IMG/VR virus record: IMGVR_UViG_3300009164_000047
Location: 1-64,000 of that record
DNA: 64,000 nt
From: a virus
Strand: one strand, 5' to 3'
Shown here: one piece after another, positions 976-55,466 of the stretch
Numbering within the stretch: the stretch's first letter is position 1
Layout: each line of letters begins with the position of its first letter
Notes under the pieces: model-generated
The model's input: the letters and a program-made list of their open reading frames with translations, nothing else
Databases searched by the model: none
What the model was told of the DNA's origin: nothing
Made by a program: the position numbers and the translations under genes

Positions 976-3573
976 TTAAGCTGCCATGTATGTTTTTATG
1001 CTATGTTGCAACAAATTACTCTTATCCATACTAGTAATTAAATCATCAAATTGACTGTCAATCATACTCAATAATTCTAAATCTAAGTCATCTTTGTTAT
1101 CAGTATTTTGTTTTGATGTAAATGATTGCATAGTAGATTTGGGTTTAATGGTATTTCTAATCTCAGAAAATGTATTTTCTTTAAATTCTGGTGGCAGATT
1201 AATAGGGATAGTTCCATTGAATAATTCAATCAATGCTTCACGCCCGTGCATTTCAATCTCTTTACCTTGTATCATACTCTTACCAAACTTAGCTTTTTCA
1301 ATATGTACCGGGTCGTTTCTATATGGGCGTCTAAGTCCTGCTCTTTGTAGTATTCCTCTACCCTCCATCCAATCCAATTGATCCTTACTAACGTCAACCG
1401 CAGTAGAACTCATATGAGGAGTTTCTTTTACATCAGGATTTGCCGGAGTATTTACATTTCCGTGACCGGGAACATAGACCATTGGTTTACCAGGACCACC
1501 ACCTGCTTTAAGCCAACCCTGATACAATGATTTTTGTTCGTCATATGAACGAAAAGATGATGTTAGCATTAATTTTTTATTAGTTTGTTTAAAATATTCT
1601 TGAGCCAATAATGTTACATTCTTAGCTAATCCTGGATTTCTACTAGAAAATTGTGCCCAATTTTGTGCAGAACCTGATCCTGAACCAAATTCAATATACT
1701 TGGCTGCTTCACCTAAATCAGTTTTTAATATTCTGTCATTTAAATTTTGTTTATTTTGATCTTTTTCGTGGTCACTTAATGCTCTTTCACCGGCAGTAGT
1801 AGCAGTTGTTGAGGCAGTATATCCTTTATCAATTTTATCTTTTCTTTCTTGCAGTTTTGCTCTCTCTGCTTCTAATTGTTGAATAGAAGTTCCACTTTCT
1901 ATATTTTTGTCTCTCTCATCTTTTGCTATCGTTTCAGCTTCTCTTGCGGCGTTCATTGCTTTTAGTGCTTTATCTCTTTCTGCCTCAGGCGCACCTTTTT
2001 TCACAAGATTTTTATAGTTACTTTCTGCTTGTTTTCTACTTTCTTCTGCGGCTTTCAATTTATTGTTTGGTGCCTTAACTCTTTCAATTCTAGCATCCAT
2101 TTCAGCTAATTGCTTTGCGGCATCAGCCTTCATACCTTCAAGTTGTTTTGGGTTACCAATTAGTAACATCATTTTTTCAAAGCCTTCGGTATACTTACCA
2201 CCACCAATAATTCTACCAAAATCTGCAATAGCAAACGCAGTTTTCTTAACAGTTTCAACTAATAAATTAAATCCTGTTAATGCAAATGGCATCATTTTTT
2301 GAACTACAGTGTCTTTGACAAAACCCATTTCTCGTTCAGCATCAATCATTGTATTTTTTGCATCAATTATCTTATCAGGTTCATTTGCTTTTTCAGCAAT
2401 AAGTTTTTTAGCATCTTCTTCTGTTTTTATTCCGGCAAGTTTTTCTGTTTCCTGAAATACTCTGCCATTAATACCTGATGCATTTTGTAAATCTTTTGAA
2501 ACTGATAATACATCTTTATTTTTCTTTGCATAGTTTTGATATGCAACTCCTACTTCTCTAGCAGCCTCGGCTCCAGTCATTGTACCATCTTCAACTGCTT
2601 TTGCTATTTGAGCGGCTCTGTCACCCATAACCAGCATCATCTTTTTACCTTCTTCAGTAGTAGCAGTTCCATTTGCAATCCAGTCAGCCATACCCTTATT
2701 AAGTTCAGGACTAACTTTATCTAACAATGATAATACAACACCAAAATTATCTGCCGCTTTGCTATTACCACTTTTTATCAATTCTCTCATCTTAATTTGA
2801 TAAGAAGTATTTGATTTAAGTCCGGCTAATCTAGTTGCTGCCTGATCTCTACTTTCACCGGTTAGCACACTCAATGTAGTTAGTGTGTCTACATAAGATA
2901 AGGTACTTTTTCTTAATGCTCTATCATCTTCACCAATTTTCACTCCATACCCAGTTAAATATTTTACACCCTCTGCTTGATATTTCATCAGCATCTCTGG
3001 ATTTAGACCTTGTTTTAAATACTTTAATTGGTCTTCTCTGTTATCAAAAACTTTTGCTAATCTTTCGGCTGCTTTTCCTGTATTAGGACCTAAATACTTT
3101 AATGATTCTCCTACAGAGTTGAAAGACTCCATTAACTTACCAGCTTTATCTATAGGATATCCGGCTGACTTAGCCATATTGACTAGATCAGTAGTAGTCT
3201 TGGTAGCAGATATACCTACACCAGACACACTGTCCTGTAGCTTCATTACAGTGTCAACTTGCTTAAACACTCCGCCTACTAATGCATCTGCAATTGAAAG
3301 AAGCCCTTCAACCCCTGCAGCTACATTTCTTATTGTGCCGTTTTTTGATGAGCCAAAATGATTAGTTAAACTACTAAAAGACCTTTCTATACTAATATTC
3401 CATTTTGATACATCATCTCCGGCAGTTGTTATTGCTTTACTTACACCACCGGTTATACTAGACAAATCCCTAAAGGTAGCCTTACCAAAGTTCTTTAAAC
3501 GTTTTGCTAGTTTGGCAGTTTCAGCATTTAACTGTTGTGCATTACTACTAAATTCATTTATTTCATTTGACAT
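976..3573 (-). CDS. Tape-measure-like helical virion protein with C-terminal M15 (VanY/Ply500-like) zinc peptidase
   Basis: Long Ala/Lys-rich helical sequence. The C-terminal LTSSFRSYDEQ..H-x6-D (PHMSSTAVD)..DPVHIE fits the M15 zinc-ligand pattern. Paralogous to the upstream gene. Confidence 0.7.
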   Translation of the reverse strand: MSNEINEFSSNAQQLNAETAKLAKRLKNFGKATFRDLSSITGGVSKAITTAGDDVSKWNISIERSFSSLTNHFGSSKNGTIRNVAAGVEGLLSIADALVGGVFKQVDTVMKLQDSVSGVGISATKTTTDLVNMAKSAGYPIDKAGKLMESFNSVGESLKYLGPNTGKAAERLAKVFDNREDQLKYLKQGLNPEMLMKYQAEGVKYLTGYGVKIGEDDRALRKSTLSYVDTLTTLSVLTGESRDQAATRLAGLKSNTSYQIKMRELIKSGNSKAADNFGVVLSLLDKVSPELNKGMADWIANGTATTEEGKKMMLVMGDRAAQIAKAVEDGTMTGAEAAREVGVAYQNYAKKNKDVLSVSKDLQNASGINGRVFQETEKLAGIKTEEDAKKLIAEKANEPDKIIDAKNTMIDAEREMGFVKDTVVQKMMPFALTGFNLLVETVKKTAFAIADFGRIIGGGKYTEGFEKMMLLIGNPKQLEGMKADAAKQLAEMDARIERVKAPNNKLKAAEESRKQAESNYKNLVKKGAPEAERDKALKAMNAAREAETIAKDERDKNIESGTSIQQLEAERAKLQERKDKIDKGYTASTTATTAGERALSDHEKDQNKQNLNDRILKTDLGEAAKYIEFGSGSGSAQNWAQFSSRNPGLAKNVTLLAQEYFKQTNKKLMLTSSFRSYDEQKSLYQGWLKAGGGPGKPMVYVPGHGNVNTPANPDVKETPHMSSTAVDVSKDQLDWMEGRGILQRAGLRRPYRNDPVHIEKAKFGKSMIQGKEIEMHGREALIELFNGTIPINLPPEFKENTFSEIRNTIKPKSTMQSFTSKQNTDNKDDLDLELLSMIDSQFDDLITSMDKSNLLQHSIKTYMAA

Positions 3574-3575
3574 GA

Positions 3576-5894
3576 TTATCCTCTAGCATGATCTAAAAGT
3601 TCAGTTTGTAAATTGTTATTAAGTCTAATTCGTTCTAACAATGTATCTAATTTGTCAGTAACTGATTGTAGGACTCCGGTTGTTTTATTAGTTGATGTGG
3701 ATCCCCCAAACGTAGATAAAGATTGTTCGTCATCACTACCTTTAAGCATATTCATCATACTAGTCATCATATCAGTTAATTGTGAGGTGTCAGTTAATGG
3801 ATTATTTTTGTTACCCGTCAAATCTGCTGGCATAGAAGCCATACTCATATCGTTCTTAAACGATACCGGAATAGTATCTCCGCTAGGTAAGGGAACAACT
3901 GCAAAGTCTTTACCTTTTGGTAATTGTTTTCTATAGCCGGACATAGGTCCATCAAAAACCCCACCGGTTAGCTTGCTTGAATTATTGCTGGCTCCGTCAC
4001 CAGTAGTTCCACCAAATTTGAATTCTGGTACAGGGGCGTCTTGATTTACAGTAGACGTTGCACTCTTAGCTTGTTTGGGATTAAGTTTAGTGTTTCTTTT
4101 AGATGGTGCAGGTGCGGTTGTATTGTCCGCCTTGGGTGCAGGAAGTGCATCTCCGGATGTTTTGTAAACTGGGAGATTACGTTTTTTTGCTTCCTCTTGC
4201 CAAAATGCTGTTTGTTTTTTTAAATCAGCTACTTCTTGGGTTAAACTATCTAGACGAGGAGAGGTGCCGTCTTCATTGACTAGAGGAGCTTTAGATTCTT
4301 CGTCTAACAATTTTTGTTTCTTTTCAAGTTGGTCTAAAAATATATACTGTTTTTTCTCAACTTCTTCATCAGGTGTTACAGCCGTTATAAAATCATCAAA
4401 GTTTAAACCAAGTTGCTTTGCTAATGGACTTGCCATAAATCCAATTGCTAATTCTCTAATAGCAAGCATCGCTCCCTTAAATGCGTCTATTACCATTGGC
4501 AAGGTTAATTTTAAAAGTGTGTCCATCATCTTTGCTAATTGGTCAGTTGTATTTTTTACAGTATTTGAGAAATCAGTATAAGGATCTACTTTCTTCATTT
4601 TTTCATCAATAGCAGACTTAGTTGCGTCTAGTTGACCTTCGACCATTTTCTTAGCTGTATTTTCAAGAGTCTTTGTACCAATACCCATTGAATTTCTAAG
4701 TTCACCACTTGCCTTTAAGGCCGCGCCCATACTTATAAGAGTAGCTTCACCGCTTTCATTCAATTTATTAATAAATTCTTCTGGACTTAACTTACCGCTC
4801 TTAAACTCATTTGTCCAAGTAACAAATGCACCCTGTGTTCTGGTTGACAATGCTTGTGCTTCTGCACTGATAGCCGCACCATTTGCATATACATCTCTAA
4901 ATGCTTTCTGTGCAGATTCATCTACATTTGAACCAATAAGAGATGACATAGTTTGAACTAACTCTCGCTGTTTCATTCCTGCTTCACTATCACCCAATTG
5001 ACGTAGTGACATATTAAATGCAAAATCGTCTAAATCTTTTTGGCGTGATTGTTGTAGTGCTTCAGTAGTCTCGCCGGTAATAGCACTTAACACTGATAAG
5101 TTTTTTGTATAGTCAGTTGATTGTTTTACTAATGTGTCATCAACTTTTTTTCTACCAAAACCTAATGCACCTTGCTCTTTCATAAAAGAAGCTTGTGCAT
5201 TTAATAATTTTTCTTGACTAAAACCTAAATTAGCAAATTCGTTACGAGTCTTTTGTTGGTCTGCTAAACTATCAGTATTAAAACTTGCTAACTGTGTGAA
5301 AGTTTTAATACCCTCACCTGATGTTGCCCCTAACTTGAGTAAATCACCACCTAAACTTGTGATGGTTTTCACCATCATCTGAGATTGTCCATTGATGGTA
5401 TTGAACCCCGCATCGTTGAACATTCCCTCAAGTTCAGTTGAAGTGAATTGTGCCGCAGCACCTAAATCACCCAATTTATTGAAGTTACCAACTATCTTAT
5501 CTACTTGTGATAAATTAGCACCAACTAAAGCAGTAAACGCTTTGACTGCTAAACCAAGAACTACACCCAAAGGACCAAATGCCGCAGTTGCTAGACTTGA
5601 TAATCCCGATCCGGCAGCTTCTATTGCTCCGTTGTATTTTGATAAACTGTCGTCATTTTGAGTAAGTGCTTTAGAAAAACTTATTGCACTTTGTCCTAAT
5701 GACCTAAACCCAGCTTCGGCTTGCGCTATAGATGCTGATACAGCAGAGTCTCCACCTCTTATATCCTCAGCTGCCGTACCCATATTGGCAGCGGCACTTT
5801 GAGTAGCACTAGACAGAGACCTGGCACTTCTGTCAATCTCTTGTTTAGTATCTTCGTTCAGTCGTCTTGCTTCTTCTTCTGGATTTGTTGCCAT
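3576..5894 (-). CDS. Tape-measure-like virion protein (paralog of 976-3573)
   Basis: Helical protein sharing blocks with its neighbour (YTKNLSVLSAITGE vs YVDTLTTLSVLTGE; C-terminal IPV..LDxL..NxLQ). ATG at 5894 is preferred over TTG at 5909. Adjacent to the gp26-like chaperone. Confidence 0.6.
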   Translation of the reverse strand: MATNPEEEARRLNEDTKQEIDRSARSLSSATQSAAANMGTAAEDIRGGDSAVSASIAQAEAGFRSLGQSAISFSKALTQNDDSLSKYNGAIEAAGSGLSSLATAAFGPLGVVLGLAVKAFTALVGANLSQVDKIVGNFNKLGDLGAAAQFTSTELEGMFNDAGFNTINGQSQMMVKTITSLGGDLLKLGATSGEGIKTFTQLASFNTDSLADQQKTRNEFANLGFSQEKLLNAQASFMKEQGALGFGRKKVDDTLVKQSTDYTKNLSVLSAITGETTEALQQSRQKDLDDFAFNMSLRQLGDSEAGMKQRELVQTMSSLIGSNVDESAQKAFRDVYANGAAISAEAQALSTRTQGAFVTWTNEFKSGKLSPEEFINKLNESGEATLISMGAALKASGELRNSMGIGTKTLENTAKKMVEGQLDATKSAIDEKMKKVDPYTDFSNTVKNTTDQLAKMMDTLLKLTLPMVIDAFKGAMLAIRELAIGFMASPLAKQLGLNFDDFITAVTPDEEVEKKQYIFLDQLEKKQKLLDEESKAPLVNEDGTSPRLDSLTQEVADLKKQTAFWQEEAKKRNLPVYKTSGDALPAPKADNTTAPAPSKRNTKLNPKQAKSATSTVNQDAPVPEFKFGGTTGDGASNNSSKLTGGVFDGPMSGYRKQLPKGKDFAVVPLPSGDTIPVSFKNDMSMASMPADLTGNKNNPLTDTSQLTDMMTSMMNMLKGSDDEQSLSTFGGSTSTNKTTGVLQSVTDKLDTLLERIRLNNNLQTELLDHARG

Positions 5895-5962: not shown

Positions 5963-6793
5963 ATGAGTTTAGAAAATAACCCTTTAAAGCAGTATTTCCG
6001 TCGCCCGGGAATTTATTTAAAATTACCCAGCGGTGGATTAGGATATGAACCGGGAGTAATTGAATTTCCAGAGACCGGAGACTTGCCTGTGTATCCAATG
6101 ACTGCGATTGACGAAATCACTAGCAAAACTCCAGATGCGTTGTATAACGGAACTGCTGTAGTAGATATCATTACTAGTTGCATTCCATCAATTAAACAAC
6201 CATGGAAAGTAACCTCAGTTGATTTAGATGCTATCTTAGTAGCAATTAAAATTGCAACAAATGGTTCTGAAATGGAGATTGAAACTACTTGCAATAAATG
6301 TGAGGAAGAATCAAAGTACGGGGTAAACTTAAGTATGGTTTTGAATAATTTCAGACCCGGTGATTATGAAAACGGACTAGTAATAGACCAATTGAAAATA
6401 AAGTTTCGCCCACTAACTTACAAAATATTAGCTGGTAGTAGTGTAAAACAATTTGAAATACAAAAAGGTATCATTTACATTAACAGCTTACCTGACGGCT
6501 TTGAAAAAGACGAAAAGTCAAATGAATTGTTAAAAACAATAACAGACTCAACAGTTGATGTATTAGTAGATACTATTGATTGTGTGATTACTCCGGAATC
6601 AATAGTAAACGATAGAGCATTTATTATGGAATTCATTATGAACACTGATAAGAAAACTTTTGAAGCTATCAGAGACCATAGTGTAAAATTGCGTGAAAGT
6701 ACACAAACTCAACCATTACACATAACATGTACTCATTGCAATAATGAGTATGACCAAGCATTCACATTGAATGTAAGCGATTTTTTCGCTTAA
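5963..6793 (+). CDS. Baseplate hub assembly protein, T4 gp26-like
   Basis: NPLKQYFRRP..LPS, YPMTAIDE, DLDAILVAIKIAT, two CxxC pairs (CNKC, CTHC), C-terminal DFF. Strong SD AGGAG. Confidence 0.8.
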   Translation: MSLENNPLKQYFRRPGIYLKLPSGGLGYEPGVIEFPETGDLPVYPMTAIDEITSKTPDALYNGTAVVDIITSCIPSIKQPWKVTSVDLDAILVAIKIATNGSEMEIETTCNKCEEESKYGVNLSMVLNNFRPGDYENGLVIDQLKIKFRPLTYKILAGSSVKQFEIQKGIIYINSLPDGFEKDEKSNELLKTITDSTVDVLVDTIDCVITPESIVNDRAFIMEFIMNTDKKTFEAIRDHSVKLRESTQTQPLHITCTHCNNEYDQAFTLNVSDFFA

Positions 6794-6829
6794 GGCTTCT
6801 ATACCTTGACCCCGAAGGTATCGGGAAGC
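6781..6829 (+). other. Candidate programmed -1 ribosomal frameshift site (T TTT TTC + 7-nt spacer + hairpin)
   Basis: Slippery heptamer 6781-6787 in the correct register. Hairpin GCTTCTATACCTT/AAGGTAT(CG)GGAAGC at 6795-6829. The -1 frame is stop-free into ORF 6832-7017. Confidence 0.75.
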
Positions 6830-6831
6830 TG

Positions 6832-7017
6832 ATGGATGGTATGGAACGGGATATAAAGGCTATTAAGAAGAACTCTGTACGTATAGCCTGGTATATGCGT
6901 GGAGCCTTAACCTATGAGGATGTACTCAATCTCAGTGCTGATGAACTAAAATCGGTTAATGAAATTATTGAAGAAAACTTAGAAACTACTAAGAAAACAC
7001 AGATGCCGTTCTTCTAA
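6832..7017 (+). CDS. gp51-like hub assembly chaperone segment, probably the frameshifted C-terminus of the gp26-like protein
   Basis: WYMRGALTYEDVLNLS..E motif typical of the small ORF after gp26. The frame is open from at least 6781. Confidence 0.7.
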   Translation: MDGMERDIKAIKKNSVRIAWYMRGALTYEDVLNLSADELKSVNEIIEENLETTKKTQMPFF

Positions 7018-7536
7018 TCCATGGTATATCATTTGTTATTATTACGGTAATCACCCTATTCATTAATTGAGAGATGAACGCAGTTCATCTAAGTACTCGC
7101 TATCGCTCGTCCTTAATTGTTTACGGTTATCTAGTTTACTAATTGTAATTTGATAATTTGTATTAAGGACTATATTGCCGCTTTGAAGCCATGGTAGTGC
7201 TATTCAGCACTACCAATGGTAAAGGTATGTTTGCCATGCCCGTCATCCATAGTCATCTCTTCCCCGGATAATCAACTCTTTTCTGTTATTATTCGCCACC
7301 GGTTGCTCTGTAGGGTTTTTGGGACTGTAGTTGAAGCTATTAGGTTCTGCCTAATTCTTCAGCAACGCATGTTACATATTCGCAAGATAAAGTAAAATAT
7401 GTACTCATTGAAGGTTCGCTTTGACGAGAGCCTTCTCGGTGTTCCGTACCATTACTGATACGCATACTCCAGAATCCGACGGCACAGCACAATCTGTACA
7501 ATCTCAAGGAGGACTTGCAACCAAGCCTACGATTTT
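7018..7536 (-). ncRNA. Candidate large structured non-coding element (RNA and/or origin), family unknown
   Basis: About 520 nt with no ORF of 60 aa or more in a gene-dense genome, with at least 7 hairpins. G-U pairs and a GUAA tetraloop favour the minus strand. Confidence 0.5.
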
Positions 7537-8103
7537 TTAAATGTCAATAGTTAGATTTGACTTTGTGTCTGTGTTTATATTTGACTTTGTGTCTGCTGAA
7601 TATGTTTGTACTAATTTGGTATTGTGTTTAAAGAATGAATCGAATTCCATGATGTACCAGTCACTAAACTTTTCACTTCCGTAGAAGAAGAAATTGTCAG
7701 TGATCCATGTTAGCTTGCATTGCACAGCAACATAACGACCCTTACGATTAAATTTCATAAAAAGAATATTCAAATCGTCTGGATCGGCTACATCAAGTAG
7801 TTGTTCTAACCAAGAATCCAATATTTTGTGTTCACCTGATAATAATAAGTGAAAGGGAAAATCAGCATAAAACTTACATTCTACGTTCATCTTCGGAAAG
7901 CTTTGTCCGGGCACAATATCACCCTTAAAGCTACGAATCTGACCTTCATGTAGAAACTGAGTTCTGGACTGATTCTTGCCACCAACATAAGCTCCGGAAC
8001 CAGGAGCTCGAATAAAGCTTTCGCTATATTTTTCGCTTAGATATTTTGCGATTTCTCGCTCAAATCCTGATCCTTTGTTCTTGCTCGGTGATGACATAGA
8101 CAT
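7537..8103 (-). CDS. Holliday junction resolvase (PD-(D/E)XK, Hjc-like)
   Basis: SKNKGSGFEREIA...GDI...VECK motifs; next to gp46/47. Confidence 0.8.
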   Translation of the reverse strand: MSMSSPSKNKGSGFEREIAKYLSEKYSESFIRAPGSGAYVGGKNQSRTQFLHEGQIRSFKGDIVPGQSFPKMNVECKFYADFPFHLLLSGEHKILDSWLEQLLDVADPDDLNILFMKFNRKGRYVAVQCKLTWITDNFFFYGSEKFSDWYIMEFDSFFKHNTKLVQTYSADTKSNINTDTKSNLTIDI

Positions 8104-8133
8104 ATACTTATCTCTTATCAGTGACTTTCAAAT

Positions 8134-10206
8134 TTATTCTACGTCTACCGCTGTGCTATATGTAGTAAAGCCGTTTTCTTTGACTACTTTTAAGACACTG
8201 GGCACACGCCCTGCTAGTTCTTCACGGTGAGAAACAAGCCAAATAGACTTATGTCGTCTACGTGACATGTCCTTAAGAATAGCAATAGCGTTTTCAACAC
8301 CCATTGTGTCTAGCCCACTGTCAATCAATTCATCAATGAATAGTGTATTGATAGGTGAATACAAGTTCTCCCAAACATCACGGAATGCAAAACTCAAGCC
8401 TAGAATTAGTCGATTACGCTCACCGCGACTTAAGTTATCAAAGTCAAGTTCACGGCCCAATTCAGTAATTTCAACCGTTAAATCATTCTGAAATACTACT
8501 TGATGCGGCAATCCAATCTTATCTAAGTAATGTGTTAAACGACTATTCAAGTACGACAAGTTTTGGTCAATAATTTTCTTACGAACAAAACTGTCTTTGC
8601 TAGTTAGAATATCTAATAGAAACTTCTGATGTTCCATAGTCTTTGTTAGTTTATTGATAGCATCAAAGTCAATTGCTTGCAACGCATTTGATTCCATTTC
8701 AACTACTTGTTCAGCATATGGATCAGTCTCTGCTGCCTTACTCTCAATATTCTGCAACAACCCAGATACTTTACTACGATGTTCAATTGCTTGAGTTTCA
8801 GTATCATAATGAGTAACTGGCATGGGACCTACTTCAACTGATGTAAGTTCTGTTAGTTGTTCAGCATATGGATCAACTTCTTTTTCTTTTTCAAGTATCT
8901 TTGTGCGAATGTTTTCTGCATCACTACCATGACGGATTGCTTCAGCTTCTGTTTTATAATGTGTCTTTGGCTTGTCACCTAACACAACGTCTTTGTCGTT
9001 TAATTCTTTTATTTGATTAACTAAAGAGGCAACATGATTTTGTGCATCTGCAAGCATCTTTTCTTTATCTTCTAAGACTTTTGTATGTTGCTCATCATGG
9101 AAATCTTGCCCACAGGCATAGCATTGATGTGCTAATAATTTTATAATTTCAACGTTTAGCTTATCTATTAGTTTTTTTTCTTTGTCAATGTCTTTGTTTA
9201 GCCGAGCAATATCTTTATCTCGGTCTTCAATTTCTTTTGACTTAATACTATATTCAGCTAATGATCTATGTGCTAGAATTTCTTGAACAATATCAATCCT
9301 AGATAACTTCTCACCGCTAGCCAGTAAATCATTGATATCCTTGTCTTGTTTTTGTTTCCACGCAGTTTGGCGAGCCAACAATGAATCACGTGTATCTTTT
9401 TGTTTTTTCTTGACATTATAAATGGCTAAGTCTTTGTGTGCCAATAACTCTTTATCAATGTCAATCTGTCCTAATTCATCATATTGTGCAACTAGGTAAG
9501 CTAAGTCACTATCATGTTTCTTTTGCCAAAGTCCTTGTCTTCGGATCAAACTTTCAATCTGTTCTTTAATACGCTTGTTGGCTTCTTCAATAGCTTTGAC
9601 TTTATATTCTTCGCTTTGTATTCCGTCTTTAGTTTCTTTTAACAATACTTTGATTGTTTCTGCTTTTTCGGATAATAAAGTAATACCCAACAACTGTTCA
9701 ATGATTTCACGTTGTTCGTTTGATTTTAATGCTAGGAACGGCTCACTATATGTATTCAATGCAACAATATGACGGAACATACTACTAGACATACATAGTA
9801 CTTTTTCAATTGCTACTTGTGTTTCTTTGTTCTCGCCCTGTGCATCATCCGTACCTTTTTGTAAATCATTGTTTACATAAAATCGTAATAGATTTGGCTT
9901 ACGACCACGCTCAATCTTATAGTCAATGCCACCAACACTGAATTCAAGTGTAACTAACATACCCTTTCCATTTGTACGATTAACTAAATTATCTTTTCTG
10001 ATTGAGTTAATGGGCACACCGAATAATGCATAGCTTAGACCCTGAATAAGACTAGTCTTACCTGTACCATTACGAGCACCGTCACCACCCAAGTCTAAGT
10101 TCTCACCTAGAATAAGTGTTAAGTCTTGGCGGTTAAAGTCAACTGCTTGTGTGACTTGTCCGATTGATAGAAAGTTCCGTAATGTAATGTTCTTTAATAA
10201 TATCAT
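8134..10206 (-). CDS. Recombination ATPase gp46 / SbcC / Rad50
   Basis: Walker A NGTGKT, central CYAC zinc hook, signature LSRGE, Walker B FIDELID, H-loop VSH. Confidence 0.95.
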   Translation of the reverse strand: MILLKNITLRNFLSIGQVTQAVDFNRQDLTLILGENLDLGGDGARNGTGKTSLIQGLSYALFGVPINSIRKDNLVNRTNGKGMLVTLEFSVGGIDYKIERGRKPNLLRFYVNNDLQKGTDDAQGENKETQVAIEKVLCMSSSMFRHIVALNTYSEPFLALKSNEQREIIEQLLGITLLSEKAETIKVLLKETKDGIQSEEYKVKAIEEANKRIKEQIESLIRRQGLWQKKHDSDLAYLVAQYDELGQIDIDKELLAHKDLAIYNVKKKQKDTRDSLLARQTAWKQKQDKDINDLLASGEKLSRIDIVQEILAHRSLAEYSIKSKEIEDRDKDIARLNKDIDKEKKLIDKLNVEIIKLLAHQCYACGQDFHDEQHTKVLEDKEKMLADAQNHVASLVNQIKELNDKDVVLGDKPKTHYKTEAEAIRHGSDAENIRTKILEKEKEVDPYAEQLTELTSVEVGPMPVTHYDTETQAIEHRSKVSGLLQNIESKAAETDPYAEQVVEMESNALQAIDFDAINKLTKTMEHQKFLLDILTSKDSFVRKKIIDQNLSYLNSRLTHYLDKIGLPHQVVFQNDLTVEITELGRELDFDNLSRGERNRLILGLSFAFRDVWENLYSPINTLFIDELIDSGLDTMGVENAIAILKDMSRRRHKSIWLVSHREELAGRVPSVLKVVKENGFTTYSTAVDVE

Positions 10207-10424
10207 TTTAATTTTCTAAAAAAACTATCTTTGGATGATTTCTCTTCCCTCAATGTTCGTTCTATTATACCTTCTAATTTCAGCTTAACTTTAATCAAAC
10301 TTTTTTGTTCACGCAAACTACCTATATAGGAATGAGTATGAGTTAATTCAGATAAAGCAATACCCAAATGCTTGTTTACTTTAATCAATGATTCTAATTC
10401 TCTAACTTCTCTGGGTATCTTCAT
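10203..10424 (-). CDS. Small basic hypothetical protein between gp47 and gp46
   Basis: 73 aa with ATGA-type overlaps to both neighbours, indicating translational coupling. Confidence 0.7.
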   Translation of the reverse strand: MKIPREVRELESLIKVNKHLGIALSELTHTHSYIGSLREQKSLIKVKLKLEGIIERTLREEKSSKDSFFRKLK

Positions 10425-11434
10425 AGGTTATTGTAAATCTCTAATAGGATTCGTTTGTCAAATGTATTTGATTCAATGCCGTTAATCTGGTCAATGACGA
10501 TTTGATCTACACTTTCAAACTTAAGACCATCAAAGCCTTGATTTTCTGTCTGTTCGACCTTCATAGGTATCAATGTCATTTCACGTAGTTTATGTTCTGG
10601 TATCATGGTTTCACGTATGAAATTTGCCTCTTCATAGCTAATATCAATGTCAAGATGTACTCTAACATGACTATCAATTAATAGCAACCCCTCAGGGTTT
10701 TCTAAGATATCGCTGAGTTTGTGTACTCTAAATATGGGTTGTCTTGGCCAGCTATGAAATACTGGTTCAACCCCCCATTCTAATATCATCATACCACGTG
10801 CATCATCACCTGCATCAGCATAGTTATGTGGGAAAGCATTACCGATATACCAAATATTTTTCTTTGCTTGTCGTTTATGAAAATGCCCACTGAATACTGT
10901 ATCAAAGCCAGTAAAATGTTCACTACTAATCTCACCGTGATCGGGCATCTCTACCATAGCATTCATAAAGAAACTTGGTAATTCAAAATGACCAAACATA
11001 TATTTGCCAGATAACTTTTGTACTTTCTTATAATCATCTTGTACAAGCCAGGGCGCAATAACAACATCACCCCGACTGAACCAATCGTTAACGATTGTCA
11101 CGTTAGGTAAATGCCTAGCCCATTCAACGCTGTGAATATCTCGCTTGTCTCTATAGTAAAGGTCGTGATTGCCGGGTATAAAGAATACTTGGTCAAATGA
11201 AGCACTTAATTTCTCAAGTGCTTGTAGACCAAAAGTTAACGTATGAATATTAATACTAGCACGGTGATGGTTATAATCACCCAAGAAGAAACAGGTTTCA
11301 CAACCCTCTTCTTTTGCTTTTTTAATAAACCAGTCTACGAAATTAGCACAGTCTTGGTTGTGCTGTAAACTGTTGCTCTTAAGGCCGAAATGGATATCGG
11401 TAAATACTGCGGCTTTTTTGAAAAGGTTAGTCAT
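10421..11434 (-). CDS. Recombination nuclease gp47 / SbcD / Mre11
   Basis: Metallophosphoesterase motifs DIHFG, LGD, GNHD, GHFE, SGHFH. Confidence 0.95.
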   Translation of the reverse strand: MTNLFKKAAVFTDIHFGLKSNSLQHNQDCANFVDWFIKKAKEEGCETCFFLGDYNHHRASINIHTLTFGLQALEKLSASFDQVFFIPGNHDLYYRDKRDIHSVEWARHLPNVTIVNDWFSRGDVVIAPWLVQDDYKKVQKLSGKYMFGHFELPSFFMNAMVEMPDHGEISSEHFTGFDTVFSGHFHKRQAKKNIWYIGNAFPHNYADAGDDARGMMILEWGVEPVFHSWPRQPIFRVHKLSDILENPEGLLLIDSHVRVHLDIDISYEEANFIRETMIPEHKLREMTLIPMKVEQTENQGFDGLKFESVDQIVIDQINGIESNTFDKRILLEIYNNL

Positions 11435-11484: not shown

Positions 11485-12390
11485 TTATTCTTCGTAAACA
11501 GTAGAACTAGTTCCAAGACCCTGGCGTGACCAGCTTGGATTAAGCCCATTCATCTCTAAAATATCATCACGTATATTTTGATTTCGTTTTTCGGAATTTA
11601 ATACACGACAAAAACTATTAGTAATAGCCGCAGTGTAATAAGCGAATGGGTTAGCAGATTTGGCTTCATTGAAACGTAAGCCAACATATGTAAGTTGTAG
11701 AATAGCCGAGTTACGCATCTCATCGTTGTATGTGTACCCGCGCCAATTAAATTTCATTGCATATTTTTCACATAGCATGATGTACATACGGGCAAGTTTA
11801 TTAGTAATGTTTCCTTGATCCTTACCAAACTCACCATTTTCTAAATCACCTTTCCAATGACTCTTTCCGATAACTTTAAAAGTATTTGTACTATCTAAAC
11901 GATAGTGCTGAAAGGGCGGGAAGTTGACTTTGACATGTACCATGTCGTCAACTTCTTTAGCGGTAGTAGGATCTTCTAAATCAGCAAAAATTTCGTCCGC
12001 ATCACCCTCAAATTCAAAGATATCTTTAGCAGTTTTCTTTTTATCTACCTTGCGAGGTTGTTTGGGTGCGACCGGAATATGATCCCAAGTCATTACACGA
12101 AATACTAAGTCTGTTGTAGGAATAGACATTGGGTCAGTCGTACCCTTAGTAAGCCCTTGTTCAATGTCTAGCCTCTCAGCCCTAGTTTCACGTGCTAACT
12201 GAATGTTCTCTGGTTTGTATGCGTATTCTAGGCTTTGAGGAATACTAGACTGGGGCATATCCACAATAAAATCATATCTATGATCCGCTTCTGCTAGAAA
12301 TGTGCAATATGAGTTTTTGCTACTGTGAATCTCTTTTAAAATGTCCTTGTTATTTAAATAATTTACGGGTTTTTTTGTTATGATTGTCAT
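11485..12390 (-). CDS. Late-transcription sigma factor, T4 gp55-like
   Basis: NYLNNKDIL N-terminus; NWRGYTYNDEM...RFNEAKSANPFAYYT. The order 55-47-46 matches T4. ATG 12390 is preferred because the longer TTG start lies inside the promoter. Confidence 0.9.
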   Translation of the reverse strand: MTIITKKPVNYLNNKDILKEIHSSKNSYCTFLAEADHRYDFIVDMPQSSIPQSLEYAYKPENIQLARETRAERLDIEQGLTKGTTDPMSIPTTDLVFRVMTWDHIPVAPKQPRKVDKKKTAKDIFEFEGDADEIFADLEDPTTAKEVDDMVHVKVNFPPFQHYRLDSTNTFKVIGKSHWKGDLENGEFGKDQGNITNKLARMYIMLCEKYAMKFNWRGYTYNDEMRNSAILQLTYVGLRFNEAKSANPFAYYTAAITNSFCRVLNSEKRNQNIRDDILEMNGLNPSWSRQGLGTSSTVYEE

Positions 12391-12415
12391 AAGTGGTTGA
12401 AGTTTCCTTGATAGT

Positions 12416-12444
12416 ATTATATCAGGTTTGTAGTCAAAAAGCAA
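12416..12444 (-). promoter_or_regulatory. Sigma70-type promoter for gp55 (TTGCTT-17-TATAAT)
   Basis: Same -35/-10 hexamers and spacing as the promoter at 11441-11469. Confidence 0.65.
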
Positions 12445-23808: not shown

Positions 23809-26800
23809 ATGGCAAATAGAGTTAGAACAATTGATTTTCTTCCTGAGATTTTTAGAACAGAAACTAATAATCAATTCTTGGGTGCTACCCTAGACCAACT
23901 AGTTACACCTCCTAAATTAGATAAAATTGAAGGATATATTGGTCGTAAATTCGAATATGGATTAACTGCTAGTGATAGTTATATTGTTGAACCTAGTAAA
24001 ATTAGACAAGACTATCAGTTTGAACCAGGTGTAATATTTACTAAAACTAATACTAGTACTGCGGTTGATTTTTTAACATACCCCGGATTAGTTGACGCAC
24101 TTGTATCTGAAAATGGATCAGTAATTAATCATTCTAAACTATTTGCAAATCAATTCTATTCATGGGATAGTTTTGTAGATTTAGATAAACTTGTTAACTT
24201 CAGTCAATACTATTGGTTGCCTGATGGTCCTGATGTTGTGGATGTAAAAACTAGTTTATTGTATAACAAATTAGATTATGTTGTTACTAATCAGTCAATA
24301 GACTATTCTATTTCTGCCAATGACATTAGTTTGGGTAAGAATCCAATAATAACATTACTACGTGGTGGCACCTACACATTTAATGTATCACAACCAAATA
24401 AGTTTTATATTCAAACTAGTCCTGGAACTTCAGGTAAAAATCCATCACGTGTTAACTTAACTAGCAGAGAGATTTATGGATTGGATAATAACGGCATTGA
24501 TGCTGGTTTTATGACGTTTACTGTCCCTTATGCAACTGACCAAGATAATATCAAATATCCCGGTAATAATCCAGTTGACATTGTGTGTACTTTACCTTTC
24601 GAAAAAGTACACGGTATGCCATTGAGTAAACTTAAAGAAATTGATGGAATTAATTCATTGCGTAACAGAACATTAATGTTTTATGGATTTAAACCGGGAA
24701 CAACTGCTAAACTTACTAACTTCTATGACAACGTAGCATTTGATGATGTTACCTATGACGGCGGTGATACTACAGTAATTACAAATAATTTCTATAAAAT
24801 TAATTATGTTAGTGAAGACGACGGTGACCCCGTAATTATATTGACTGAACAGAAGGTTATTCCAACTAATCAAAAAATTACTGCAATATTTGGTGAAACT
24901 TTTATTAGCAGAGACTTTGTAAAAAATCAATTAGGTGAAATACTTCAATTAGCACAAATCACGGCTGATTTAGATACACTATATTATCAGGACGCAGTTG
25001 ATCCATTAAAGACCGGACTTATAAAGTTAGTAGAAGATAATGCATCACATAAAATCAATGTTGAAGCTGAAATTCTAGGGAAGAAAACTTATAAAAGTCC
25101 GTTTGGTGTTGTGTTTACAAACGGAATGAAGATTAATTTTGTGGGCTCAATATTTCCGGAATCATATAAAGATAAAAAATACTATGTAGAAGGTGTTGGA
25201 ACTGGAATAGAATTAGTACCTGAAACTGATGTATTGGTTCCAGAAACCTTCAGTCAGATTGTTTATAAATCATATGATAATGAAGGATTTGATACATCAA
25301 CATTCAGTGAACGATTGAATGTCCCTGTAGTTAAAGATTACATTACTATTAGTAGAAATGCAAAAAATAGAAATGCATGGAGTCGTAGTAATCGTTGGTT
25401 TCATATTAATGTATTGAAAGCTACTGCTTTATATTCAAGTGGCAAGATATCTAACGCCGCATTGAACAACGCAGATAACCGTGCCAAAAGACCAATCATT
25501 GAATTTTATCCAAATTTAAAATTGTTTAATAGTGGGACTATGCATAAAACATTTGTTGATTTTATTGATACTACAACCACTAATGCTAATACTCAAGTAT
25601 CAGGACAAACATCTTACATACCCGATGGTAGCTTACCGCTATTTGATGGTGCAACAATTGTTTTTACTGCTGATAATGATGTTGAAGTGCGAAATAAAAT
25701 ATTTACTGTAAGATTTCGATCAATTACTGGATCTGGTTCACCGATAATTACATTAACTAATGCAAATAAAGATGTAATTGTTGCAAATGAACAAGTAGTT
25801 TCAAAACGTGGAACTAATAACGTTGGCAAAACATATTATTTTAACGGGTCAAATTGGTCGTACTCACAAGCAAAAACATTAATAAATCAACCTCCTATAT
25901 TCGATGTGTTTGATATTAATGGTGTAAGTTTTAGCAATCAATCATATTATCAAGGTAGTGATTTTAAGGGAACTAAATTATTTTCATATGCTATTGGTAC
26001 CGGTACTGATGATATTATATTGGGGTTTCCAATAAAGTATAGTTCAGTAGCTAATATTGGCGATATTAATTTTAATATTGATTTTAACAGTGATTCGTTT
26101 AATTTTATTAAAAATTTTGTTTCTACTACATATAATATTACCGATGGATATGTTCATAACTATACTTCACTTACTGCCTACAATAGAAAAATAGGTTGGG
26201 AAACTGCGATTGGTGAAAGTTTTCAGTATCAAGCATTTGAATTTGAATATACCATTGGTAAATCTTTTTCAACATTAAAATTTAATATATTGCCGGTAAC
26301 TTCAAGTCCTTGGCCAACAGTCAAAGTTTATTTTGATAGTACGGAACTCACTTCATCACAATTTACAGTTAAAACATCAACTACGTTAAATCAAACAACT
26401 GTTACTTTATTATTTCCACCAGTAGTTAATACAATGATGCAAGTGTTGATATACAGTAATGATCCACTTGATTCAAAAGCATATTTTACTATACCAAGTA
26501 ACTTATCTAATAACCCGTTCAATGTTGATATCCCTGAATTAAGTTTAGGTGATTTGCGTGGACATTACCAAAGCATTTACAATAACAGTAGAAAAATTAC
26601 CGGTGATGTGTTTGGGGCAAATAACTTTAGAGATGTTGGAAATTTAATTCCGTATTCTACTAAAATAATCAGAAACAGTGCGCCAATGGTAAAATTGGCA
26701 GCATTCATGCGCCATCCAGAATACAATTTAATAGATTCATTGTCATTTAACGCACAAGAATATGTTAAGTTTAAACAATTGATGTTATCAACTGTTGACC

Positions 26801-29800
26801 AATCAGAATATTTCCCAACAATGTCCGGTGGACAGATGTTAGATGATGTATTGCAACAGATTGCTTCATATAAACAAGAAAGTGATAGTTTCTTTTGGTC
26901 AGATATGTTACCTGCGAGAGCACCATATATCTCTAAAATTTATACATTCAATGCATTTATTGATACAAGCTTCTTCCCATTAAGCAAGATATATGATTTT
27001 AAAAATGCAAACTATAATTCAATTTTAGTTTATAGTAAGAATACTGTCGGCGGGATTGATAGATACACTCAATTAATTAAAGATTTAGATTATACTATTA
27101 GCAGTACTCAGCCTAAATTACAAATTACTAAGGATTTAGTGGCAGGGGATACAATCATAGTCAACGAATATAATACTACGTATGGTAGTTATGTTCCAAA
27201 TACTCCTAGCAAATTAGGATTATATCCTGCAAGTCGCCCAAGTATTGTATTAGACAACAGTTATCTAATTCCTACGTATTTTATTAAAGGACATGACGGA
27301 TCATTAACTAAATTGTTTGGTGCATATAATAATGGTTACTTAGAAGATTTTAAAGATAAAGTTTTATTAGAGTTTGAAACTCGTATCTATAATAACATCA
27401 AAGTAAGTGCTCCTATTCCAATCAAAGAAGATGAAATTATTCCTGGTTACTTTAGAAGCACCGGCAACTCAATAGCAGAAGTTCAAAATATATATTCTGT
27501 TAATTTCTTAGACTGGGTTGGTAAGAATAACATTGACTTTGCAAATAATTTTTATTCTTCAAGTGAAAAATTTACTTGGAATTACAAAAATGCTACAGAT
27601 AAAACTAATAAAGTTATAACTCAAGGTTTCTGGAGAGGAATATATTTGTGGTATTATGATACTACCACCCCTCATTCAACGCCATGGGAGATGTTGGGAC
27701 TAACAGATAAACCTTCTTGGTGGGATGCTCGTTATGGTGAAGCACCATATACTAGCGATAATAAAGTATTGTGGACAGACATTGAGGCAGGAAGAATTAA
27801 TGGAACAGTTAATTCACGTAGAGCAAGACCCGGATTGTCTACAATATTGCCGGTTGATTCATATGGTAATTTAAAGAATCCATTTAATACAATGGTTCGT
27901 GATTATAGTAAGGCAGTATTTAACACTGCATGGGATGTGGGTGATGTAGGTCCTGCAGAATATAGTTATAGAAGAAGTAGTAACTGGCCATTTGATTTAA
28001 TGAAGATAATTGCATTATTAAAACCTGCAAAGTTCTTCTCATTGGCACAGGATATAGATTTATATACATATAGTTCAGAATTTAACCAATTCTTGTTGGA
28101 TGGATTCCTACATGGGAATAAAATTCCACTATTGTATGGTAATGGGACAGCACAGCATGGTTATATGAATTGGATTGTTGATTATGTTCAACGAACCGGA
28201 CACATAGGACATAATAAAGTTACATCATTATTAAACAATTTAGATGTAAGATTAATTTATAGAATTGCTGGTTTTACCGACAAAGAATATTTAAATTTTT
28301 ACTTAGAAAAAACAAGCACCAATTCAAATAATGTGTCATTGTTGTTACCTAGTGAAAGTTACAATGTAATGTTGTATCAAAATCAACCTGAATTTACTAT
28401 TCGCTATAGTAGTATAATTATACAAAAAACTTCTGCTAATGGATATTCAGTTACCGGTAATAGTCAGACTCGTTCATATTTTATGACATATACATCCGAC
28501 CCGGATGGTACGTACAAAGTAATTGAAGTAAATGGTAAAAAGGTTAATATACCTAATAATTACAGCACTGTAATTAAATATGTTCCTTATGGTACGGTGT
28601 TTACTACAGCGCAATCACTGGGTGAATTCATTACAAACTACGGTAGATATCTAACCGACCAAGGAATACAATTTGATAATCAAGAAAATGAATTCATATT
28701 AAACTGGGAACAAATGGTTGCTGAGGCACTATATTGGGTAGGCGCAAATTGGGAAGTTGGAAGTTTGATTAGTATTAATCCAGTTGCAAATTGTTTAGTA
28801 ATTAATAAAGATAGTTTAATTGTCCAGCCACTTACCGCACAGGATAAGAATTTTATTTTGAATCAAAACTTATATGCAATTCATTCAAGCGATTTAGCAA
28901 TATTAAGAGATGACACTAGATTTGAAGTTAGACCATTAAATGATGGTGATACTATTTCATATTTTACTGCCAGTTTAAATTCACTAGAACATGGTATTGT
29001 GTTTGATAACGTGTCATTGTTCAATGATACAATATTCAACAAACTTACCGGATTACGTCAGAATAGATTGTTCTTGCGAGGACAAAAAACTGCTGAATGG
29101 AATGGTACATTAAATGCTCAAGGATTCTTATTAAATCAGGATAATATTGAAAATTGGTCAGCGAATGTAAAATACGTTAAGGGTTCTATTGTAACACATC
29201 AGAACAAATATTGGATGGCTAATAAAACGGTGTTGGCATCACTTACATTCAATTCAAATGATTGGATTGAAACAGATTACGAAAAGATTCAAAAAGGGTT
29301 ATTACCCAATGCAAGTACACGTGCATCAGAAAGTGCATTGTACTATGATATTAAAAATGCTAACTTAAAGAATGATGGAGATTTGCTAGGGTTCTCATTG
29401 ATTGGATATAGACCTAGAGATTACTTATCTGCTAGTGATTTATCAGATATTTCACAAGTTAATTTATATAAAAGTTTTCTTAGTGAAAAGGGAACTAAGA
29501 ATGCAGTTAATATTGCTCAAAACATTACATTAGATGTTGGACAAATCAAATATGATGTATATGAAAACTGGGCTATTAAGACTGCTGAATACGGTGGAAT
29601 AACTAACCATAATTTTATTGAATTCAAACTTAACAAAACTCAATTAACTGGTAATCCCAATATCATAGGTATAGTAAATGATAAACCTGAATCAGGACTA
29701 TTACAGACTATTCCTTTATATGGACTAACTAATTTTGGATCAGTAATTACAGACATTAATATTCTACCTAGAAAACCCCTTGATTATTTTGAGAAGTTAC

Positions 29801-50548: not shown

Positions 50549-50650
50549 ATGTTTGAAAATTGGCATTGGGTTTATATGTGGGGCATTTTAGTTGTAGCCA
50601 ACTATATGTTCTGGATAGTAAAAAGTCTTTTTGACAACGTGAAAGAGTAA
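50549..50650 (+). CDS. Unannotated 33-aa single-TM protein (MFENWHWVYMWGILVVANYMFWIVKSLFDNVKE)
   Basis: TAAGG SD overlaps the preceding stop; hydrophobic, Trp-rich core; fills the gap exactly. Confidence 0.6.
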   Translation: MFENWHWVYMWGILVVANYMFWIVKSLFDNVKE

Positions 50651-51060
50651 GTTATTGCTGTATGAAGCAAAGAGAAAAGTGTTCTGGACGGGGGTGCGAA
50701 TCCCCCCAGGTCCACCATAAGGAAGTTTGTGAAAAGTAAAAGTAAGTTCAGTCGTTTTAATCTTAAAGGCAACATTATGTGGTGCCTAAATTTGCGTAAC
50801 GGATGGGTAAGAATTTACAACACTATAATTCGTTGGAATACCGATTGGACAACTAATTATAGATACTTTTCAATAGAACAAATAAAAGTTTCTTTATGAT
50901 GGGCCTGCATAGTTTCGACAGGGCAAGTAGTAACAGAGTGGACAGCACGGTAGGCGATGACCGTTAATCAAGCAAAAAAAGTAAACGCAAACGACTCACA
51001 GTTCGCATTAGCAGCCTAAACACTGCTTAGGGTAAGACATACCTCGTAACAGAAAATCAG
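50651..51060 (+). ncRNA. ssrA: Circularly permuted (two-piece) tmRNA
   Basis: Acceptor piece ~50651-50717 (T-arm GGGGG-TGCGAAT-CCCCC, then CAGGTCC-A-CCA) lies upstream of the coding piece, which starts GGGCCTG at 50901. They form a 7-bp acceptor stem with G3-U70. D-loop TTCGAC; tag ORF 50987-51019 encodes ANDSQFALAA*. Confidence 0.95.
50729..50899 (+). CDS. 56-aa basic/aromatic ORF inside the tmRNA intervening segment
   Basis: SD TAAGGA 50718-50723, GTG 50729, TGA 50897-50899. Fills the segment between CCA and the 5' G almost exactly. Confidence 0.6.
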   Translation: MKSKSKFSRFNLKGNIMWCLNLRNGWVRIYNTIIRWNTDWTTNYRYFSIEQIKVSL

Positions 51061-51087
51061 AAAAGGCTCTTAGGAGCCTTTTTCTTT
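51061..51087 (+). terminator. Intrinsic terminator of tmRNA
   Basis: AAAAGGCTC-TTAG-GAGCCTTTT followed by a T-tract. Confidence 0.9.
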
Positions 51088-51130
51088 GGCATAATTTTTC
51101 TAATAAATACTATATTAAATAGGATAAATT

Positions 51131-54898: not shown

Positions 54899-55008
54899 GT
54901 GTTTACACTGGGTAAAAACAATGATTTTCTCTATGTTATTTTTGATTTTTCCGTGTATAATAACGATATATACTATGACAGTATGTCAAACTTAACCAGG
55001 AGAAAACT

Positions 55009-55080
55009 ATGTGGACAAAACCAACAGCATCTGATATGCGTTTCGGATTTGAAATCACGATGTATATTGCTAACCGCTAA
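55009..55080 (+). CDS. pqqA: Pyrroloquinoline quinone precursor peptide PqqA ([23 protein letters not shown])
   Basis: 23 aa with W-x-x-P and RFGFExxxY (EITMY); SD AGGAG; own terminator. Below the ORF-track cutoff. Confidence 0.93.
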
Positions 55081-55094
55081 TATATATTGAAATC

Positions 55095-55122
55095 AAAAAA
55101 AGGGCACTAGTTGCCCTTTTTT
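55095..55122 (+). terminator. Intrinsic (bidirectional-type) terminator after pqqA
   Basis: A7-GGGCA-CTAGT-TGCCC-T6. Confidence 0.85.
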
Positions 55123-55158
55123 CTTTACTGCTTCTGAATAATCATATATACTATTAAC

Positions 55159-55446
55159 ATGAGTACTGAACAAGACAAATTCAACCATTCTAAGCGTTTA
55201 CTCAAGGATGAGAACGCCATTAAAAAGCAAACTAGGATTGCTAAATCAGCAGGCATAAAAGTTGACGAACCACATAAGTTTGCCAAACATCATGCATTAG
55301 ACTGTGGTAATCCAGAATGTTTTTTATGCGGTAATCCTAGAAAAACACATAAAGATAAGCTAACTCAACAAGAGAAACGTTTATTTCAAGATGTAGAACA
55401 AGAGCGTGATAAACGCAGTAATGGTCTACCAAAAAGTGAAGAATGA
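55159..55446 (+). CDS. Basic hypothetical protein with C-x4-C-x2-C-GNPR putative zinc motif
   Basis: HHALDCGNPECFLCGNPRK; preceded by TTTACT-17-TATACT, 6 nt, then ATG. Confidence 0.75.
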   Translation: MSTEQDKFNHSKRLLKDENAIKKQTRIAKSAGIKVDEPHKFAKHHALDCGNPECFLCGNPRKTHKDKLTQQEKRLFQDVEQERDKRSNGLPKSEE

Positions 55447-55448
55447 GA

Positions 55449-55466
55449 CAGTAATATTTCTGTCAC
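55449..55466 (+). promoter_or_regulatory. Pho-box-like 11-bp direct repeat upstream of the porin
   Basis: CAGTAAT-ATTT-CTGTCAC compared with the PhoB consensus CTGTCAT-A(A/T)A(A/T)-CTGTCA(C/T). Confidence 0.45.

Follow-up and report, generated by a model that had tools for sequence, protein, structure and literature searches.

What is encoded at positions 7018 to 7536 of the viral record IMGVR_UViG_3300009164_000047, in the gap between a 61-amino-acid (aa) open reading frame (ORF) on the plus strand (6832-7017) and a PDDEXK_15 nuclease gene on the minus strand (7537-8103)? The DNA analyzed here, referred to as the window, covers the initial 64 kb of an IMG/VR viral contig of 97.7 kb; since this contig was judged 28% complete, the genome is likely jumbo-sized. 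An initial reading of the letters (the sequence-only reading) had proposed that the gap holds a large, structured phage noncoding RNA (ncRNA) of the minus strand, downstream of gp47/46-like and resolvase-like genes. Covariation among relatives, the excess of G-U over A-C pairs, and GNRA loops that appear on the minus strand only uphold that proposal. In our reconstruction, positions 7072 to 7536 are very probably the gene for a large, double-pseudoknotted minus-strand ncRNA of about 350 to 460 nucleotides (nt), carried by an uncultured freshwater T4-like jumbo phage.

The comparison was made with 128 related IMG/VR loci (labeled with L numbers), gathered by searches with the nuclease and baseplate-hub proteins. 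The order of hub gene, 61-aa ORF (o61), gap, and nuclease gene is kept in 110 of the 128, which yield 82 unique gaps, and in most of these syntenic loci the gap measures 420 to 530 nt. An ORF conserved in frame and in place was not found in the 82 unique gaps, where stop-to-stop frames of at least 30 codons vary in frame, strand, and place; the gap had been described as noncoding, and its relatives agree. The higher GC content noticed in its right part is also real, at 0.41 to 0.44 over 7200-7500 versus 0.33 to 0.35 in the flanks. Across 78 aligned relatives, the helices and junction strands over 7068-7536 are 70 to 96% identical to the window (mostly 60 to 96% per 10-nt bin), and identity drops to 22 to 45% in an AU-rich linker (7138-7167) and in the loop of helix P8 (7338-7357). 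The structured core at 7177-7527 is 99% alignable by blastn in 103 relatives, with a median identity of 77.7%, while the flanking coding sequences in the same comparison are 44 to 89% alignable at 71 to 75% identity. The core is at least as alignable as the coding genes on its sides. The leftmost 50 nt or so of the gap (7018-7071) are poorly conserved and probably lie outside the RNA.

The strongest evidence for a folded RNA is the pattern of substitutions. RNAalifold, applied to a plain MAFFT alignment of 47 minus-strand sequences, returned 74 pairs, 43 of them compensatory. Pseudoknots were then added by reading the alignments, and the full structure of 115 pairs was scored on the same unfitted alignment. 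Standard pairs fill 94.4% of its cells, compared with 83.0% in shuffled and 31 to 43% in slid controls, and the covariation score is 0.344 versus 0.141 for shuffled and at most 0.082 for slid alignments. Both sides have changed in 79 of the 115 pairs, a number reached by none of 500 shuffles (44.9±2.7) and far above the slid controls (21 to 30); comparison of relatives had been named as the way to check the proposal, and the covariation it called for is there. Furthermore, an unsupervised mutual-information scan of 115 unique sequences recovers both pseudoknots (PK1 and PK2), for example at columns 149/284 (UA in 82 sequences, CG in 32) and 151/282 (AU in 75, GC in 35). The element at 7072-7536 therefore shows what is generally asked of a structured ncRNA, compensatory pairs beyond controls together with strand-specific G-U pairs.

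Several observations indicate that the minus strand is the one that folds. The fold energy of the alignment is -206.9 kcal/mol on the minus strand versus -189.5 kcal/mol on the plus strand, and the helices contain 389 G-U versus 88 A-C pairs when read as minus-strand RNA. In 92 of 115 sequences, hairpin P3 is capped on the minus strand by a GNRA tetraloop (GCAA, GCGA, GUAA, or GUGA); no sequence has one there on the plus strand. The G-U excess and the minus-only GNRA loops disfavor a hairpin element acting at the DNA level. They also sustain the earlier view, drawn from the GUAA loop of P3 and a few wobble pairs, that selection acts on a minus-strand RNA.

The whole conserved element (7072-7536), as delimited by conservation and by nhmmer, begins with a short A-rich leader and the core of about 350 nt, after which come an AU-rich linker and two 3' hairpins, all on the minus strand. 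In the fold shown by the comparison of relatives, the core is built from P1, a CUCC/GGAG helix around P2a, a GNRA-capped P3, a four-way junction (P4 to P8), P9, and P10, with two pseudoknots tying the P6 loop and the P7 internal loop to a single strand after P9, and the linker, P11, and P12 trailing behind. Nearly all covarying helices fall inside the core, which runs from P1 to a CGGC box (7177-7527).

At its 5' end, P1 (7512-7527) is a 6-bp hairpin with a GUUG loop, and five of its six pairs have changed on both sides. P2 joins 7501-7511 with 7467-7480 through the invariant CUCC/GGAG and an extension, and encloses the hairpin P2a (7482-7499); the CUCC/GGAG helix has one compensatory pair, from C-G to U-A, in two lineages. 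The invariant CCUCCUUGAG was also considered as a mimic of the anti-Shine-Dalgarno 3' end of 16S rRNA; this was dropped because CUCC already has GGAG as its partner within the RNA, a pairing supported by that compensatory change. P3 (7445-7462) carries the GNRA tetraloop, GUAA in the window, and all four of its outer pairs are compensatory.

The central domain (7297-7441) is a four-way junction in which a structure-based alignment finds 30 pairs, 19 of them compensatory, and which scores 154.9 bits with its own model, R1. It is closed by P4 (7437-7441 with 7297-7301) and comprises P5 (7410-7435), P6 (7369-7408), P7 (7361-7366 with 7302-7307), and P8 (7333-7360). Two of its loops reach out of the domain. 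UUAUCU in the conserved P6 loop (7385-7390) forms PK2 with AGAUAA after P9 (7253-7258), with five of six pairs compensatory, and UCCC in the P7 internal loop (7321-7324) forms PK1 with GGGA (7261-7264), with all four pairs compensatory; 97% of cells are paired in each. Both partners lie on the strand GGGAAGAGAUGA (7253-7264), GGGA just upstream of AGAUAA, immediately after the 11-bp hairpin P9 (7265-7295), in which 10 of 11 pairs are compensatory.

The 13-bp hairpin P10 (7189-7219) is nearly invariant in sequence; 97.5% of its cells are paired, and its changes are mostly one-sided, giving G-U pairs on the minus strand. The CGGC box (7177-7180) is a candidate partner for GCCG at 7480-7483, a pairing that would close the core; RNAalifold draws this helix at columns 77-80 with 427-430, with one-sided changes only. 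This box and 7227-7239 are "twin boxes" that hold two covarying yet identical positions, G/G or U/U in 102 of 115 sequences: the N of GACGG-N-CAUGGCAA and the N of AA-N-CGGCAAU, at about 7239 and about 7181, the latter being the nucleotide just 5' of the CGGC box. Such identity-linked positions suggest a base triple, a switch, or twin binding sites. Similarly, the base that precedes P4 is always the same as one in ACNUUACAG, and the base that follows CGGU is complementary to the two (the positions are about 7442, 7316, and 7297), a three-base pattern that would fit a base triple or a switch.

Downstream of the core, the linker (7115-7176) varies in length and sequence; at 7138-7157 its occupancy is 0.49 to 0.56 and its identity 22 to 25%. 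P11 (7091-7114) varies on both sides in seven of seven pairs, with 82% of cells paired and no strand preference, whereas 99.5% of cells are paired in the 8-bp hairpin P12 (7072-7090), six of whose eight pairs are compensatory and which is followed by UCUCU or UCUUU. Of the seven stems that the sequence-only reading had listed, six are conserved with compensatory changes: 7072-7090 is P12, 7192-7215 is P10, 7332-7361 is P8, 7373-7403 is P6, 7410-7435 is P5, and 7446-7461 is P3. The seventh, a 9-bp stem pairing 7109-7117 with 7162-7170, is not kept by the relatives; it occurs in the window and competes with the conserved P11. The long-range helices P4 and P7 and both pseudoknots were missing from that list.

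How widely is this RNA spread? Searches with nhmmer found the element in 235 loci, near full length in 206, and the 97.7-kb contig carries one copy. A 20-base motif taken from P10 matches more than 119 viral contigs among the matches listed; it has a single match in 596 Gb of bacterial and archaeal genomes, a count that by estimate chance could yield. A blastn search of 50,697 phage records gave only chance matches of 25 to 30 nt. Hundreds of uncultured freshwater giant phages carry this RNA, with one copy to a genome, and it is as conserved as their core genes. No description of a jumbo-phage RNA like the one in the window was found in the literature.

Models of the central domain (R1 and R2) and of the 3' domain (R3) gave no credible match in Salicola phage SCTP-2, PA5oct, or Sinorhizobium phage Phosso, searches with filters off included. 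In Phosso (2490-3503) and PA5oct (1979-3491), 1 to 1.5 kb of DNA that is unannotated or holds tiny ORFs stands beside a resolvase-like gene, and R1 to R3 found no homologue there. The four published ncRNAs of PA5oct occupy other loci (PMC7318152). An ORF-free gap of 493 to 623 nt, conserved within each group, occurs at the same place in L113, L116, and L118 (about 5050-5670) and in L122 and L123 (about 5050-5550). R1, R2, and R3 do not match these gaps, which may hold a further-diverged or a different RNA.

A relationship to one catalogued motif emerges at the far end of this spread. Rfam 15 was searched by cmscan with 4227 families, at gathering scores over the whole window and at E <= 10 over 6500-8200. 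The latter region gave only chance-level small nucleolar RNA (snoRNA) matches (E 4-7.5), and the sole gathering-level match in the window is a permuted transfer-messenger RNA (tmRNA) at 50656-51019. Among 25 related loci scanned at E <= 10 or E <= 1, there was nothing for the clade of the window. For RF01718, the Polynucleobacter-1 motif (cut-off 37 bits), no match was obtained in 6500-8200 at E <= 10, in the whole window at gathering score, in the 97.7-kb record, or in the other 15 relatives scanned at E <= 10 or <= 1. Only three distant loci pass the cut-off, L126, L127, and L129, with 46.9 bits; their synteny from hub gene to SbcC is that of the window.

In L126, the RF01718 match (5410-5553, minus strand) lies directly 5' of a weak match to R1 and R2 (5284-5401; E = 0.0016 and 0.0011, filters off); R3 has no match there. 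By eye, L126 keeps P5, P6 with a UUAUCU-like loop and a downstream AUAGAU partner, and the strands UGCGUU...ACAGCGUAACCGCC, and the same features can be seen in the flank of the Polynucleobacter genome copy given in the 2010 supplement. The gene just upstream of the match encodes a SegE-like GIY-YIG nuclease, which takes the position held by PDDEXK_15 in the window and belongs to another family. Polynucleobacter-1 was described as a 141-nt motif whose 3' half was "not always detected," with no purified phage carrier, lying downstream of small conserved GOS11034 (PSSM2_218-like) genes in freshwater and estuarine phage-like DNA (Weinberg et al. 2010, PMC2864571). We found no later paper that mentions it.

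Both RNAs occur in freshwater phage-like DNA, and each is directly preceded by a small gene on its own strand. They differ in that the Rfam model scores neither the window nor its closer relatives, in that the description of Polynucleobacter-1 lacks the double-pseudoknot architecture of about 350 nt, and in the 5' domain, which in the window (P1 to P3, about 95 nt) is shorter than the 141-nt domain of RF01718 and has other sequence and helices. From the synteny and the weak model matches, the RNA of the window would be an undescribed, distant, full-length relative of the Polynucleobacter-1 RNAs, and it is probable that RF01718 represents the 5' domain of a divergent branch of this large RNA. 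Polynucleobacter-1, an orphan since 2010, would then probably be just the 5' end of a much larger phage RNA. The novelty claimed in the sequence-only reading stands in part: the window itself, as had been said, has no Rfam match that assigns its RNA to a known family, but distant syntenic versions carry the Polynucleobacter-1 motif as their 5' domain.

The RNA gene stands at the end of a minus-strand block of genes for a gp55-like sigma factor, SbcD, SbcC, and a small nuclease. Transcription may run on from the nuclease gene, a plausible read-through that had already been suggested, or may start at a ATAAAAAT-like late-type promoter motif. A conserved A-rich motif, (T/A)ATAAAAAT, stands about 6 nt before P1 in many relatives, at a spacing that would fit initiation at P1 from a T4-type late promoter. 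ATAAATA-like motifs precede the late genes of the window (e.g., at 12516, 20474, 40734, 43003, 51131, and 55513). The strict T4 late-promoter octamer, TATAAATA, was rejected: it is under-represented (3 copies in the window versus about 13 expected), and what stands before the late genes is the looser ATAAATA.

Transcription would probably end at P12. The hairpin marks the end of the gap in several lineages, and P12 with its short U/C tract is the probable 3' end of the RNA or a weak terminator; it is A/U-rich with a weak UCUCU tail, and so departs from an intrinsic terminator, in which a G+C-rich stem directly precedes a U-run. On the plus strand, where the consensus is ...GTTCTTATTTTTTAC, most relatives have a T-run after P11, though the window has no clear one, so that P11 may terminate the late hub/o61 operon. 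As for expression, three metatranscriptome studies of lake water yielded contigs with 85 to 99% identity to 7322-7539. Their word depth is 12 to 24 over this interval versus 2 to 8 on the flanking genes, a contig depth that cannot rank genes, and one contig, from a relative, bridges the 5' part of the RNA and the end of the upstream gene.

What would such an RNA do? Large, complex, and deeply conserved RNAs are rare, and most of those known are ribozymes, ribonucleoprotein cores, or, lately, RNA-only assemblies. Our best guess is that this RNA acts in trans through its tertiary fold, because a compact double-pseudoknot fold, a GNRA cap, a possible triple, and invariant junction bases typify ribozymes, ligand-binding RNAs, and ribonucleoprotein cores. 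Tentatively, it might form a ribonucleoprotein core or act as a decoy for some conserved partner; that it is a ribozyme seems doubtful, and a self-assembling RNA of the GOLLD/ROOL type would be decidedly improbable. More speculatively, and in our view also rather improbably, it could represent a large natural ribozyme or self-assembling RNA of a new class that is used in infection, maybe as a cofactor, guide, or regulator of the upstream PDDEXK or GIY-YIG nuclease. The double-pseudoknot architecture is determined well enough for structural work and biochemical assays, and learning its function would show a need of jumbo phages that no protein meets.

Several points weigh against an RNA gene as described here. 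Single-sequence folding of the minus strand is unexceptional (z = -1.9, with -3.1 on the plus strand); such folding is weak evidence, and the case therefore rests on the comparison with relatives. A consensus scan of 6700-8300 called neither a canonical sigma-70 promoter on the minus strand nor an intrinsic terminator, and the motif before P1 in the window itself, TTTAAAAAAT, fits the late-promoter pattern poorly. P11 and P12, being without strand preference, may serve termination and not the working fold. The RNA-library contigs come from relatives, give neither strand, ends, nor level, and may include DNA, for which reason the metatranscriptome match is used only as a hint. Finally, the link to RF01718 rests on a weak match (E of about 1e-3), synteny, and comparison by eye, and R3 does not reach those loci.

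The rival that survives best sees a cis-acting 3' element of the nuclease operon, that is, a terminator or insulator, an mRNA-stability module, or a riboswitch-like module, which would control early or middle read-through into late baseplate antisense or adjust how much of a toxic nuclease is made. The convergent operons meet exactly at the element, which begins at the nuclease stop codon, P11 and P12 resemble a back-to-back terminator pair, and the bridging RNA-library contig suits a joint transcript with the upstream gene. A small nuclease gene always precedes the element, even where its family has been swapped: in L098 (2091-2537, minus strand) and L126 (5586-6014, minus strand), the PDDEXK gene gives way to a SegE-like GIY-YIG gene of 142 to 148 aa as the immediate upstream neighbor of the RNA. 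Between the GIY-YIG gene and SbcC, L126 has in addition a 69-aa Hc1 histone-H1-like gene (6011-6220, minus strand).

The same swap cuts the other way, since the RNA is retained where the family of the upstream nuclease differs and is thus independent of the neighboring gene. Moreover, with about 350 nt and two pseudoknots the core exceeds every known riboswitch aptamer in size and goes far beyond what termination needs, and the element is as conserved as coding genes. In many relatives, the late-promoter-like motif before P1 points to a separate transcript for the RNA, and no conserved alternative pairing was found between the core and P11 or P12. We therefore regard a cis-acting role as unlikely.

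Could the element instead be an ordinary member of a catalogued family (Polynucleobacter-1, GOLLD, ROOL, RNase P, tmRNA, or a group I intron) that the Rfam models miss? The RF01718 scores above cut-off in distant syntenic loci, beside a weak match to the central domain, speak for this, but RF01718 spans a 5' domain unlike P1 to P3 and is nil in the genome itself and in 15 relatives, and no Rfam family for the RNA appears in the region at E = 10. The models of GOLLD, ROOL, OLE, raiA, HEARO, RNase P, tmRNA, and group I and II introns gave no match in 6500-8200 by cmscan. A tmRNA is further disfavored by the complete permuted one that the phage has elsewhere, and an intron by flanks that form no split ORF. 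GOLLD (RF01998) and ROOL (RF03087) are, like the RNA considered here, large, multidomain, pseudoknotted phage RNAs kept by covariation, but they differ by the lack of an Rfam match at this locus and by size, the core of about 350 nt being smaller. Genes for GOLLD and ROOL are often found near tRNA genes, whereas the 64-kb window contains no tRNA gene. Both RNAs have been studied by cryo-electron microscopy (10.1101/2024.12.08.627333). Membership in a catalogued family is accordingly improbable.

A third possibility, also voiced in the sequence-only reading, is a replication origin. The transcript would be a structured pre-primer in the manner of ColE1 RNA II or a T4 origin RNA, forming an R-loop in the AU-rich linker, with an initiator bound at a box upstream. 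Two copies of a conserved box, CAGACACAAAGTCAA, stand 24 nt apart as a tandem 24-nt repeat (7557-7595, minus strand) in the C-terminal, non-domain tail of the nuclease ORF. Exact copies occur only there in the window, and up to two mismatches give six matches versus 0.5 expected. The box, CAGACACNANGTCAA, is found 45 to 80 nt upstream of P1 in 95 of 117 relatives; under a strict pattern, 82 have one copy, 13 have two, and 22 have none. L098 has three copies in noncoding DNA (1965-2035, minus strand), and L126 has one degenerate copy in a short noncoding spacer.

In the window, the tandem repeat region (7542-7595, minus strand) translates as ...DTKSNINTDTKSN, and a protein motif (DTKS in the nuclease tail) was considered for CAGACACNANGTCAA. 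It was rejected as a full account because the box is noncoding in L098 and L126, so that the box is a feature of the RNA locus and is not, at least not solely, one of the protein. It is a candidate promoter element, protein-binding site, or iteron. The T4 origin oriE has iterons, oriF and oriG use R-loop primers, and the origin of lambda lies inside a coding region. The likeness to ColE1 RNA II and to the transcripts of oriE, oriF, and oriG thus lies in a transcript of several hundred nucleotides by repeated boxes, an AT-rich stretch, and replication or recombination genes: here the locus-specific box, the AU-rich, sequence-variable region that trails the core, and the adjoining recombination and replication genes.

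Most relatives, however, have a single box, at a variable distance from P1. No need for double pseudoknots or GNRA contacts is known for the ColE1 and T4 RNAs, and the double-pseudoknotted core, the GNRA loop, and the invariant junction bases far exceed what any known R-loop primer needs; the strand-specific G-U pairs argue for selection on the RNA fold, not on the DNA. GC skew is uninformative either way for a contig that is 28% complete. The argument for an origin primer, drawn from the repeated box and the linker, is circumstantial and weak, and we consider this explanation very unlikely. As for no RNA at all, namely a missed small protein gene or a DNA element such as a cruciform or a packaging or recombination site, there is next to no chance of it: the gap does hold short ORFs of 59 aa (7216-7395, plus strand) and 55 aa (7340-7507, minus strand), but the longest open frames of 82 relatives are scattered over frames, strands, and positions, the substitutions come as compensatory pairs, pseudoknots included, and neither the asymmetry of G-U over A-C nor minus-only GNRA loops would be expected of DNA hairpins.

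The genes around the ncRNA gene complete the picture of the locus. The T4-type baseplate-hub gene (5963-6793, plus strand; PF12322) is followed by o61, which is kept in the relatives at 41 to 95% identity in nearly all loci. On the other side, outside the RNA, the PDDEXK_15 gene encodes a RusA-like, resolvase-type nuclease (PF24608, E = 2e-24; PHROG 244), and beyond it on the minus strand come the genes for the SbcC-like protein (8134-10206), the SbcD-like protein (10421-11434), and the gp55-like late sigma factor (11485-12444). Further stretches without an ORF of at least 100 aa are present in the window, for example at 54899-55512. A single ORF of 5371 codons extends over 23809-39924 on the plus strand. 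The complete permuted, two-piece tmRNA lies at 50625-51110 on the plus strand (Rfam tmRNA_permuted, 131 bits), and ARAGORN reads its tag as ANDSQFALAA. The ending -FALAA recalls the tmRNA tags of betaproteobacteria, and the tag would fit a freshwater host of the Burkholderiales, such as Polynucleobacter.

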